A stretch of DNA of 63,148 nt, filler included, from Stramenopiles sp. TOSAG23-3 (lineage: Eukaryota): the NCBI GenBank assembly GCA_900128585.1. It is 46 parts of 46 records of this genome, joined end to end, with 100 filler letters (N's around TTAATTAATTAA, not from the genome) between each part and the next. Parts side by side here need not be neighbours in the genome. Positions count along the whole stretch, not along the records: positions 2,778 to 4,065 come from LT646100.1; 45 more parts are not named here. The stretch is one strand, 5' to 3'. Numbering within the stretch: the stretch's first letter is position 1; the number at the start of each line of letters is the position of its first letter. Positions 2,778 to 8,325 of the stretch are shown in pieces. The position numbers and the translations under genes are program-made. The notes under the pieces are model-generated. The model worked only from the letters and a program-made list of their open reading frames with translations, searched no databases and had not been told where the DNA came from.

Positions 2778-3642
2778 ACTTCAAGCGTGTTCCGTACTTC
2801 GGCCCGGAGGGCAGCTTGCTGGGCAGCAAATCGCATCCTTTTGTTCTCTTGCTTTTCACGATGGATTCGTAAATTTGGAACACGTTAAATTGGTTTTGCT
2901 CTAACTTTCCCACGTCATTTGCATTTTTAATTTTGATCTTGAAGTGATTGTTCGCATTTTTCAGTAATATTCCGTAGTTATCCATTTTTGCTAGCAATTC
3001 CTTGCATTTCTTGATAGCTTTTGAATCTGCCTCAAGGAAATTTTTTCCGGCTTTCAAAACACCATATACCGTTTTTGCGTATGGTACGTATTTAATAACC
3101 CCTTCGAACGAATGGATGAAAACTTCCGCCCAATCACTATTAATAATTTTATCCACTTTACCCGCGCCGTTTAAAATATCGTCGTACAATTTTTCACCCT
3201 TCGATTGCCAATTTTTTTCCTCCTCGTCGTCTTTCTTTTGTTTTGCTTCTTCTTTTCGCTGCGTATCCGTTTTTGGCTCGTTTTGAACGGTGTTTATAAA
3301 ATCATCGATCGCATCTCTAATCCCTTTCGTATTTTCTAAAACTTCCGATCCATCATCATACACTTTAGATATTGGATCAATAATATTTTCTGTCGCAAAT
3401 TTTAATGATTCCCCTAAATATGTTCGGACTTTAGAACAGTTACTGCAAACGACTTTGCCGCAGTAACGACAATGGTGGCGACGAAATGTTAACGTGAAAA
3501 AGTCCTTGCACAACTCGCAGCCGATGTGGTCGTTATTTGGATGCCAATTTGTCTTAGCAATTAGTTTCAATTTTATTTCACTATTTTTATTCTTAGATAT
3601 CTCAAAACATTTATAACATGCCCGATGTTCTTGTGTTGTCAT
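2778..3642 (-). CDS. FYVE zinc-finger protein with coiled-coil C-terminus, 3' partial
   Basis: WHPNND-x-CELC-x-FTLTFRRHHCRYCGKVVCSNCS signature; ATG preceded by an in-frame TGA 10 codons upstream. Confidence 0.85.
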
Positions 3643-4165
3643 GTTGTTCCCGTTGTGAGTACGTTTACTTCAATATATATATATATTATCTTTGCTTAAT
3701 ATATATATATATATATATTGTATCAGCGCATTGTTGGATCAGTCAACTCCCTTTTTTTATGTAGTCGTCTCTAACAAGGCTTTGGGACGTACGTCCATCC
3801 AAGTGGAGTATCGGTACGGCGACTTGAACGTCTTGTATGAGTTCGTTTGATGCAGAAAAATAGGAGGAAGAGGAGGACTCTTCGCTAAAATAATAATAAT
3901 AATTAATTAATCTTTTTATTCAGAAAGAAAATAGTACATTTTTATTAACAATTAGCTAAGGTCGAGGTCATCTCTCTTCGCTACTTAAAACTACGCCCAA
4001 CACTATAATACTACATCTCGCGTGCAGCGCAGCTAAGTATTCCACATCAAATATCAAATATGTCCNNNNNNNNNNNNNNNNNNNNNNNNNNNNNNNNNNN
4101 NNNNNNNNNTTAATTAATTAANNNNNNNNNNNNNNNNNNNNNNNNNNNNNNNNNNNNNNNNNNNN

Positions 4166-4467: not shown

Positions 4468-4863
4468 ATGTCCCTTGTTCACGAGTCTATTACTACTTGT
4501 CTGCAGGACGTTCTGGCAGCGGTGCCAGCACTCCAAGGTATTTTTGTGACAACGAACGACGGTGTTGAGGTAGCGTCGGTGGCACAGCCGGGGTTTGACA
4601 AACAGATTTTGAGTAATATTTATGTGTTTGCTGCAGAGCGGGGGGGGAAAATTGGCCGCGGGGCTGTAAAGAGCATGGCCTGCACTTACGAAGACGTCAT
4701 GTATATCCATACTTCCTTGTCACCCCTGACACTAACGTTTGTCGGAGGAACTGAGATGGAGTCAAAGGCTGTAAGAAAAGTTTTACCATCCATCGAAAAT
4801 CTATTAGAGCCAATTAAAAGCGCGATAGCCCAGATTGAAGAGGACGACGACGATGATGAGTGA
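4468..4863 (+). CDS. LAMTOR3: Ragulator subunit LAMTOR3/MP1-like roadblock protein, complete
   Basis: 131 aa; LQGIFVTTNDGVEV, FAAERGGKIGRGAVKSMACTY, SPLTLTFV pattern. Confidence 0.8.
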   Translation: MSLVHESITTCLQDVLAAVPALQGIFVTTNDGVEVASVAQPGFDKQILSNIYVFAAERGGKIGRGAVKSMACTYEDVMYIHTSLSPLTLTFVGGTEMESKAVRKVLPSIENLLEPIKSAIAQIEEDDDDDE

Positions 4864-6447: not shown

Positions 6448-6939
6448 TCAATGTATCCTGCACCCGCACTTGGTGCATTATTATCTGAAATTGACAAGGT
6501 GAGGAAAACAATGAAAGGGAAATGGAAGATGCACTTGAAATGGTTACTAAAGCAAAAGGCATGACAAAAACAAAACAATCAAATGAGTAATTACTTTGTT
6601 AATAAGGAACCCCTAAAACCCATTACGTGTGGCATTCCGTGGGTTGGATGTCGACTTTATAAAGGCATGGGACGAGGCATGGCGGACGCAAGTATGGCGG
6701 ATTATCCTACTGGATACTGGGGTGCAACTGTTATCGCTCGTCTTCGTGACGAATGGGTTCAGCTTAGAAGCATCGTAACCGATAATGTCGCTGGCGATTG
6801 CGAACTGTTGGTCAAACATAACTTTCTTTTTGCCTTTTGNNNNNNNNNNNNNNNNNNNNNNNNNNNNNNNNNNNNNNNNNNNNTTAATTAATTAANNNNN
6901 NNNNNNNNNNNNNNNNNNNNNNNNNNNNNNNNNNNNNNN

Positions 6940-8225
6940 GGAGTTATGGAAAACAGATGGAACGGAAGCTGGAACGGTTATGGTGAAAGACATCAATCCA
7001 GGAAGTTCTAATAGTTATCCGACTTATCTTGCGCCCTTCAATGGGGAACTGTATTTCCGCGCCGATGATGGAAGCAATGGAAAGGAGTTATGGAAAACAA
7101 ATGGAACGGAAGCTGGAACGGTTATGGTGAAAGACATCAATTCAGGAAGTTCTAGTGGTGATCCGACTTCTCTTACGCCCTGCAATGGGACACTGTATTT
7201 CCGCGCCGATGATGGAACGAACGGAAAAGAGTTATGGAAAACAGATGGAACGGAAGCTGGAACGGTTATGGTGAAAAACATCAGGTCAGGAACTGCTGAT
7301 AGTTCTCCGGTTTATCTTACGCCCTTCAATGGGGAACTGTATTTCCGCGCCACTGATGGAAGCAAAGGAAATGAGTTATGGAAAACAGATGGAACGGAAG
7401 CTGGAACCGTTATGGTGAAAGACATCAATCCAGGAAGTTCTAATAGTTATCCGAGTGATCTTACGCCCTTCAATGGGGAACTGTATTTCTCCGCCAATGA
7501 TGGAAGCAAAGAAACGGAGTTATGGAAAACAAATGGAACGGAAGCTGGAACCGTTATGGTGAAAGACATCAATCCAGGAAGTGCTCATAGTTATCCGAGT
7601 GATCTTACGCCCTTCAATGGGGAACTGTATTTCCGCGCCACTGATGGAAGCAATGGAAAGGAGTTATGGAAAACAGATGGAACGGAAGCTGGAACGGTTA
7701 TGGTGAAAGACATCAATCCAGGAAGTTCTAATAGTTCTCCGACTTATCTTACGCCCTTCAATGGGGAACTGTATTTCCGCGCCGATGATGGAAGCAAAGG
7801 AAATGAGTTATGGAAAACAGATGGAACGGAAGCTGGAACGGTTATGGTGAAAGACATCAATCCAGGAAGTTCTAGTGGTAATCCGACTTATCTTGCGCCC
7901 TTCAATGGGGAACTGTATTTCCGTGCCAATGATGCAAGCAATGGAAGGGAGTTATGGAAAACAGATGGAACGGAAAAACGTTTTCCTTGGACAACTTGCG
8001 TAGCAGGGGAGAAAGTGACTGTAAATGGTTCTGCCACAGCGAACCGTCAGTGTGATGCTTGTGGTGCTCAGACCTTTACTCCGACAACAAACCAGCAGAG
8101 CTGTACCCCTTGGACAACTTGCCAAGCAGGCGAGAAAGTGACTGTAAATGAATCTGCCACCGCGGACCGTCAGTGCGGTGCTTGTGTATCTAGTTACAAC
8201 AACGCCACAAACCAGCAGAGCTGTA
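6940..8225 (+). CDS. ELWxxDGT-repeat protein fused to TNFR-like Cys repeats, partial at both ends
   Basis: Seven full 144-bp/48-aa repeats (ELWKTDGTEAGTVMVKDINPG...LYFRADDG), then PWTTC..GEKVTVNGSATANRQC repeats. Confidence 0.92.
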
Positions 8226-8325
8226 NNNNNNNNNNNNNNNNNNNNNNNNNNNNNNNNNNNNNNNNNNNNTTAATTAATTAANNNNNNNNNNNNNNNNNNN
8301 NNNNNNNNNNNNNNNNNNNNNNNNN

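Follow-up and report, generated by a model that had tools for sequence, protein, structure and literature searches.

The window, by which we mean the whole 63,148-nucleotide (nt) stretch of Stramenopiles sp. TOSAG23-3 DNA analysed here (GenBank assembly GCA_900128585.1), holds a minus-strand gene whose product begins with a FYVE-type zinc finger in an unusual motif order. The window consists of 46 unrelated contigs of 1262–1289 nt each, set in descending order of length and joined by 45 linkers of 100 nt of the form N...TTAATTAATTAA...N; because of this make-up, the neighbouring genes provide no context for the finger gene. Its own contig occupies 2778–4065, with only ~420 nt of true upstream DNA, and the DNA around the gene has ~35% GC. 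The frame is open from 3669 to the contig end (288 codons) and, from an ATG at 3642–3640, yields a 288-residue product, P0001. In a six-frame search of the whole window, the FYVE-type R(R/K)HHCR motif was matched in this gene only.

The N-terminal motif of the FYVE finger is WxxD. P0001 starts with the segment H6-R7-A8-C9-Y-K-C12-F13, followed by a 20-residue linker and W33-H-P-N36; the body then continues with C42-E-L-C45, the basic motif R54-R55-H56-H57-C58-R59-Y-C61-G62 (R(R/K)HHCRxCG, residues 54–62) and C66-S-N-C69-S-K-V-R-T-Y-L76. The finger thus contains eight Cys, at 9, 12, 42, 45, 58, 61, 66 and 69. The colinear RVCxxC tail is missing after the sixth Cys of the body and its counterpart, R7-A-C9-x-x-C12-F13, precedes the Trp. 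Consistent with this, the Pfam FYVE profile (PF01363) scores 53.3 bits against a cut-off of 27.8, with residues 32–75 covering positions 1–44 of its 67. W33 is invariant, and Asn36 takes the place of the Asp of WxxD, as it also does in 3 of the 22 canonical rows of the alignment used below for structure prediction (A2). An earlier reading of this DNA from sequence alone had placed an apparently permuted finger at 3415..3642, which proves to be exactly residues 1–76 (3642–3415, minus strand). Our translation likewise bears out its statements that HRACYKCF lies at residues 6–13 ahead of the Trp motif, that the last FYVE motif is missing after CSNCSKVRTYL with no Cys pair downstream (the remaining 219 residues of the open frame hold no CxxC after C69) and that an in-frame TGA (3672–3670) lies 10 codons 5' of the ATG below AT-rich DNA, here TA repeats.

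A one-off assembly error in the start region can be set aside, because a contig from a second DNA sample of the same organism (X2) holds 3298–3762 with 0 differences; this identical stretch takes in the entire finger, its ATG and the stop upstream of it, and extends 90 nt further. Of the sampled words of the piece at 2778–4065, 100% were found in X1 and 67% in X2 (two DNA samples from one organism), and small shares occur also in marine metagenomes and metatranscriptomes. A 457-nt contig from an RNA library (X15) is colinear with 3008–3462 at 96% identity, with 18 differences; among the 16 that were listed, 8 are synonymous and 8 fall at third codon positions, a pattern that fits constraint on the coding sequence of a related strain. 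Presence in an RNA library, as for X15 and a second such contig (X16), is no proof of transcription, and the region 3463–3781 is uncovered by contigs from the two RNA runs compared.

Searches for proteins with the same order were made by several routes. A phmmer search of 1.84 billion representatives with the query returned 3607 FYVE matches at E ≤ 0.001; among the best 150 of these none is permuted, and none is full-length or reaches the C-terminal region. The proteins of the best 150 contain 235 FYVE bodies, 8 of which have no CxxC within 60 residues downstream, and these 8, the query aside, are truncated models or tandem cases. A word-indexed search with the 288-residue P0001 gave a single match among 538 candidates, an ordinary FGD6-like FYVE. 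A scan of metagenomes yielded 41 loci, two of which show the permuted order: L004 (KRGCVICF, 19 residues, W, CEIC, RRRHHCRYCGKTIC, no tail) and L039 (VRACLDCY, 21 residues, W, CELC), the latter interrupted ahead of WYHHCRYCGKCICRKCS by a one-base frameshift in a homopolymer. A profile (A1) built from permuted segments, with the N-terminal CxxC included, then retrieved P0153, P0154, P0155 and P0156, of which P0153 is the L004 protein (a cluster of 11 member sequences) and P0154 and P0155 are intact versions of L039; a further search with residues 1–300 of P0156 gave 8 matches and no new permuted member. The same permuted order is therefore found in four proteins besides P0001, making five proteins in three lineages. 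In all five the displaced segment is an invariant R-x-C-x-x-C-[F/Y], and the distance from its last Cys to the Trp is 19–21 residues in 5 of 5, against 4–54 in 43 junctions of tandem FYVE proteins.

P0156 is an 817-residue orthologue of P0001, identical at 69 of the first 80 residues (86%), and its gene model starts at the same Met (MTTKELRAC...). R7, C9, C12 and F13 are not among the 11 of these 80 residues that differ; H6 is one of those that do, and since it is a Leu in P0156 it is not a ligand. Pfam identifies positions 1–46 of 67 of the FYVE profile, an NB-ARC domain (PF00931) at 410–630 with the motif GMGGIGKT (30.4 bits against 23.5) and DUF7779. Residues 77–264 of P0001 align to P0156 without gaps; the NB-ARC domain itself lies outside the window, since the contig ends or turns chimeric at residue 264. 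For the intervening region (P0156 residues 78–400) Pfam reports nothing at E ≤ 0.1, and the ESM Atlas gives a SesA feature (PF17107, SesA/HeLo-like) at 0.78, below the tool's 0.9 line and hence a lead only; for residues 1–80 it returns plain FYVE clusters. P0156 ends (residues 770–817) in hydrophobic stretches that, judged by eye, resemble a transmembrane helix or a pair of them; this would be an uncommon feature in a protein resembling the nucleotide-binding leucine-rich repeat (NLR) class.

The remaining members carry the finger in other settings. In P0154 and P0155 it lies N-terminal to a NACHT domain (in P0155 Pfam finds positions 1–45 of 67 of the FYVE profile, NPHP3_N and NACHT), and these proteins start 48 residues before VRACLDCY with acidic low-complexity sequence and no FYVE body. 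In P0153 (L004) it forms the C-terminus of a polycystin channel (Polycystin_dom, PKD_channel and positions 6–43 of 67 of the FYVE profile). Here a single continuous open reading frame (ORF) of 736 codons runs from channel to finger without a FYVE body ahead of the finger, and for this protein the possibility that the displaced segment is the tail of an earlier FYVE is thereby ruled out.

Few of the FYVE domains compared have this arrangement. Of 364 FYVE cores in 269 proteins, 19 have no downstream CxxC, and exactly five have a CxxC upstream, none downstream and no body before them, namely those of P0001 and P0153–P0156; the partners of these five cores, from three lineages, are NB-ARC, NACHT/NPHP3_N and a PKD channel. 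When the comparison is restricted to 264 non-tandem cores followed by 63 or more residues, a CxxC lies no more than 45 residues upstream of 5 of the 12 cores without a tail and of 4 of the 252 with one (Fisher p = 9e-6), a value that is inflated because the five represent three lineages and four of the five were found with a profile holding the N-terminal CxxC.

Structure prediction and a search for homologues with the same motif order were among the checks that the sequence-only reading had proposed; the latter produced P0153–P0156, and the former also points to a displaced tail. Of the two outcomes that this reading had named as contrary to it, a spliced upstream exon with a complete first FYVE and a model whose N-terminal CxxC does not pack on the finger, neither emerged as far as the tools reach. 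We used AlphaFold2 with an alignment (A2) of four permuted segments and 22 canonical FYVE bodies, the latter cut off ahead of their tails to keep any row from hinting where the tail should lie. The resulting model has a mean predicted local distance difference test score (pLDDT) of 80.3 and a predicted template modelling score of 0.69; the body reaches 92–95, the first three ten-residue blocks 78, 84 and 81, and the N-terminal piece (78–84) is placed beside the strand at 70–76. DSSP assigns strands to 3–9 and 70–76 and a helix to 10–17, with C9 ending the first strand and C12 sitting in the helix; as these are the sole strands of at least 3 residues in the model, they probably pair with each other. 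Canonical FYVE domains end with strand β3 after the sixth Cys, strand β4 with the Arg, and then a helix opened by the last CxxC. The model as predicted reproduces this β3/β4/helix ending, with β4 and the helix supplied from the N-terminus. A single-sequence AlphaFold2 run, with a pLDDT of 60.3 and another N-terminal topology, was discarded for low confidence. A complex prediction of residues 1–30, residues 31–80 and two Zn, in which A2 was not used, scored 0.32 against a mark of 0.34 (controls 0.01–0.03) and speaks neither for nor against.

The body of the model superposes in Foldseek on endofin (3t7l; root-mean-square deviation (rmsd) 0.6 Å over 38 columns, 50% identity), EEA1 (1hyi; 1.3 Å over 38) and 1vfy (1.1 Å over 36). 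Alignments forced past the body worsen to 7–12 Å, as is expected from a tail that is not colinear. In a VIA-align search against 48,161 chains the matches 8yad_C, 3t7l, 1joc, 1dvp and 2yw8 scored Z 4.9–3.6, and none reached Z ≥ 5. With solved FYVE domains at the top of both searches, the modelled body of P0001 is a FYVE fold. Being sequential aligners, Foldseek and VIA cannot judge the N-terminal piece of a permuted finger.

Taken together, we interpret the finger as a real circularly permuted FYVE domain, with a probability of roughly 0.7. Recurrence of the same order in two other protein families makes it probable that the finger is genuine and a natural rearrangement, as the first reading had suggested. 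In the arrangement we propose, the β4 strand with the Arg of the RVC motif and the CxxC that opens the C-terminal helix would be encoded ahead of the rest of the domain, and residues 3–17 would pack on strand 70–76. C9/C12 and C58/C61 would bind the second zinc and C42/C45 and C66/C69 the first, such that all eight ligands would be kept and the cross-brace would still pair 1+3 and 2+4 along the chain.

Several points weigh against this interpretation. The sequence evidence that residues 1–20 of P0001 are a FYVE tail is weak: a tail-only hidden Markov model (HMM) scores P0001 at 2.9 bits, P0156 at 10.3 and P0154 at 8.0 and has no match in P0153; as the scores of 1355 shuffled decoys reach up to 7.6, only P0156 and P0154 beat the decoys, marginally, and P0001 and P0153 do not. 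That C9/C12 lie within zinc-binding distance of C58/C61 in the model is inferred from secondary structure and confidence values, and the alignment behind its N-terminal part has 4 rows from 3 lineages. The permuted family is small, at five proteins, and not uniform: P0154 and P0155 have WYHHCR for RRHHCR (at about residues 96–100), and the sixth Cys of P0153 is an Asp, giving C-D-H-D for C5xxC6 (at about residues 662–666). To judge from these substitutions, some permuted members may be without PI3P (phosphatidylinositol 3-phosphate) binding or a full zinc complement. Finally, the start of P0156 rests on a gene model and not on a mapped transcript, and with only ~420 nt upstream and a 5' end without RNA-contig cover in the window gene, an upstream exon is possible.

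Such an exon is the premise of the alternative that survives best, which we nevertheless hold to be unlikely: that the gene is a fragment of a tandem-FYVE gene, in which RACYKCF closes a first FYVE whose body is on an upstream exon missing from the assembly, the ATG at 3642 is not the true start, and the second FYVE is degenerate and tail-less. In its favour, the contig ends ~420 nt upstream, and the assembly is in fragments and in part chimeric; the stretch from the upstream TGA to the ATG contains an AG; and tandem FYVE proteins are frequent (of 271 relatives, 85 carry at least two FYVE cores), one of which, P0003, has a junction of a tail and the following body that aligns to residues 7–75 of the query. 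Against this, the 396 nt upstream in the contig contain no FYVE-like frame, the P0156 model begins at the same Met, and in P0153 an uninterrupted ORF shows the same order and no body ahead of it; every permuted protein keeps its linker at 19–21 residues, and the second FYVE would have to miss two zinc ligands in each of them. The earlier claim that RACxxC does not look like the tail of a preceding FYVE in the same exon accordingly holds as far as the sequences reach, no upstream body being found in the contig of P0001 or in P0156, P0154, P0155 and P0153.

It is also quite improbable, in our estimate, that the finger is a tail-less remnant with six Cys, whose N-terminal CxxC is a separate knuckle or an inter-chain zinc bridge serving dimerisation, or whose second site is empty. 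The predicted proteins include 7 other tail-less cores without an upstream CxxC, the zinc geometry of P0001 is a proposed one, and its tail-HMM score is low. However, most of those 7 look truncated, mis-spliced or interrupted by long inserts (P0035 breaks right after 'GKPVR'), an Arg ahead of the first Cys and an aromatic residue behind the second are kept, as they are in genuine FYVE tails, and AlphaFold2 sets the piece in the same chain at the canonical tail position with a pLDDT of ~80. That the gene is an assembly artefact or a pseudogene without a functional protein has very little left in its favour beyond the chimeric join at 2848/2849 and contigs of only ~1.3 kb, and is already largely refuted by 288 open codons in ~35% GC DNA, the identical second sample over 3298–3762, an 817-residue orthologue at 86–90% identity, three other intact proteins with the same order and the 96% identical X15 over 3008–3462, with its 8 of 16 listed changes synonymous.

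If the finger is a permuted FYVE domain, its ligand can be considered from the known complexes: in those of EEA1, Hrs and Vps27, PI3P is held by residues of R(R/K)HHCR, the Asp of WxxD and the Arg of RVC. As R54-R55-H56-H57-R59 and R7 are intact, with Asn in place of Asp, P0001, P0156 and P0153 are likely to bind PI3P on endosomal or phagosomal membranes; binding by P0154 and P0155, in which RR is WY, is doubtful. The finger forms the extreme N-terminus of an NB-ARC protein of the STAND type (signal transduction ATPases having numerous domains), NLR-like in architecture as seen in P0156, and caps a helical region. A plausible, if speculative, role would be the recruitment of an NLR-like switch to the membranes of endosomes or phagosomes. 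In other marine eukaryotes the permuted module stands ahead of a NACHT NTPase or follows a polycystin channel, which further suggests that it is a portable domain.

The route of origin that we consider most likely is the loss of the first unit's body and of the second unit's tail from a tandem FYVE-FYVE array, since this would leave exactly the observed order. The first reading had raised tandem duplication and truncation, and this idea fits both the 85 of 271 relatives with at least two cores and the colinearity of the P0003 junction with residues 7–75; the ancestor could have been a tandem array. A shared ancestry of the P0153 and P0154 fingers is hinted at by 'C[FY].KW', which both have after the CxxC. 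A more encompassing scenario, which we offer as tentative and consider possible rather than probable, is that a portable permuted PI3P-binding module had a single origin in a tandem array that lost its first body and last tail, and was then shuffled onto immune-type STAND NTPases (NB-ARC, NACHT) and a polycystin channel in marine protists; the event would be recent, with unpermuted relatives extant and recognisable by sequence, and in the NLR-like proteins the module would aim a SesA/HeLo-like membrane-attacking region at PI3P membranes of phagosomes or endosomes. Separately, locus L021 (33–600 of MDTC01099057.1) has an ORF with three FYVE-like units in which one CxxC (ERIFCDFC or ERIFCDLC) is followed after 11 residues by KHHC(G/R)YCG; the Cys pair seems to do double duty, closing one unit as its tail and opening the following one as its first pair, so that the units would form an interlocked FYVE chain.

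Table 1. Features of the finger gene and its contig end (window positions, in order along the minus strand)
Feature	Position	Strand	Basis
In-frame TGA, 10 codons 5' of the start	3670..3672	-	Sequence read; X2 with 0 differences
Start codon, Met1	3640..3642	-	Earliest ATG beyond the stop; equivalent Met (MTTKEL) begins the P0156 model
Displaced tail R7-A-C9-Y-K-C12-F13, equivalent of RVCxxC[F/Y]; proposed ligand pair 4, second Zn site	3604..3624	-	R-x-C-x-x-C-[FY] in all 5 permuted proteins; AlphaFold2
Linker, residues 14–32; extends the helix, then returns to the Trp motif	3547..3603	-	pLDDT 81–84; spacing of 19–21 in 5 proteins
FYVE body W33xxN36, C42xxC45, R54RHHC58RYC61G, C66xxC69	3436..3546	-	PF01363, 53.3 bits; pLDDT 92–95; Foldseek
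Residues 70–76, SKVRTYL, predicted β3 strand after the sixth Cys; canonical tail missing beyond	3415..3435	-	DSSP strand in the model; no CxxC after
Remainder of the ORF, residues 77–264, helical, no Pfam family	2849..3414	-	Gapless alignment to P0156; X15 covers 3008–3462
Probable chimeric contig end, not this gene	2778..2848	-	X2, X3 and X16 joins; P0156 alignment

The last ~24 codons of the frame are probably a chimeric join outside this gene, because X2 continues from 2849 with letters that translate as the P0156-like NEKLV.LHFK, 2778–2856 is joined to other sequence in X3 (DNA) and X16 (RNA), and P0001 and P0156 part ways from residue 265 in their alignment. At the opposite end of the contig, upstream of the gene, the 541-nt X16 matches ~100 nt at 3950–4051 with 8 differences, 1 gap and both ends loose, which could reflect a conserved element or the sequence of another organism; its short pieces at 3782–3826 and 3950–4051 (3–8 differences, loose ends) may stem from other organisms. 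Elsewhere in the window, a long open frame at 6896–8281 (plus strand) encodes ~10 repeats of ~45 residues ('ELWKTDGTEAGTVMVKDINPGSS...') followed by Cys-rich repeats, and runs past both ends of its contig. A 131-codon ORF at 4468–4863 (plus strand; MSLVHES...EEDDDDDE) may encode a small protein of the Roadblock/LC7-LAMTOR type, to judge by resemblance. A search of the whole window against Rfam gave 0 matches.

Few lipid-recognition domains have been studied as thoroughly as FYVE, whose C1-to-C8 order is taken as fixed. If our interpretation is correct, the finger would exemplify cleanly how circular permutation can arise by duplication and truncation, since its sequence motifs are kept and tandem unpermuted relatives are extant, and it would show that a cross-brace zinc finger tolerates a changed order of its ligand pairs. 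Domain annotation misses or shortens a permuted FYVE, of which Pfam sees two thirds, and such fingers are probably under-counted or dismissed as fragments. Where they cap NLR-like STAND proteins, they hint at lipid-targeted machinery for innate immunity or cell death in uncultured marine protists. We found no paper describing a permuted FYVE in the full-text literature, whose coverage leaves out most subscription journals, and the small family of circularly permuted fingers in marine eukaryotes is probably an undescribed variant of a known domain. A 2010 survey lists the co-occurrence of FYVE and NB-ARC in eukaryotic proteins in its Table 1 (PMC2837644); its text contains none of 'permut', 'tandem', 'truncated' or 'atypical' and does not address motif order.

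The closest known system is the canonical FYVE domain (PF01363; endofin 3t7l, EEA1 1joc/1hyi, Hrs 1dvp, Vps27 1vfy, RUFY1 2yw8), with which P0001 shares the spacing of the Trp motif, C1xxC2, R(R/K)HHCRxCG and C5xxC6, a total of eight Cys, a body that superposes at 0.6–1.3 Å over 36–38 columns and, around the displaced CxxC, the Arg before and the aromatic residue after that are typical of RVCxxC[F/Y]. It differs in that the fourth ligand pair, with its strand and helix, precedes the domain, leaving a Pfam match to positions 1–44 of 67, and in having Asn for the Asp of WxxD. Tandem FYVE proteins come next, as seen in P0003, the best phmmer match, a 908-residue FGD-like protein of RhoGEF-PH-FYVE architecture: its junction '...VRACRKCFQAISQEKN...W...C..C...RRHHCRVCG..C..C' is colinear with residues 7–75 of the query, with 42% identity over the matched stretches. 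The P0003 tail, however, is that of a full FYVE ahead of it, the FYVE that follows has a tail of its own, and the linker measures 26 residues as against 19–21. Circular permutants are also described for RING-like binuclear treble clefs, namely PKC C1, the TFIIH p44 zinc finger, the At1g60420 CRD and the UBR-box, in the relevant passages of two papers (PMC4506424, PMC4999995). These passages present permutations within the treble-clef core as rare, include a reviewer comment citing an older proposal that FYVE itself arose via permutation steps, and do not name a permuted FYVE. The TFIIH p44 chains 5nus_B and 5obz_B were the only family aligned over residues 3–74 of our model, too weakly to be given weight, at Z 2.3 (5nus_B, rmsd 4.2 over 46 residues). 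The RING-like permutants are old, diverged in sequence and tied to RING by structure only, whereas the finger of P0001 keeps clear FYVE motifs and has close unpermuted relatives.

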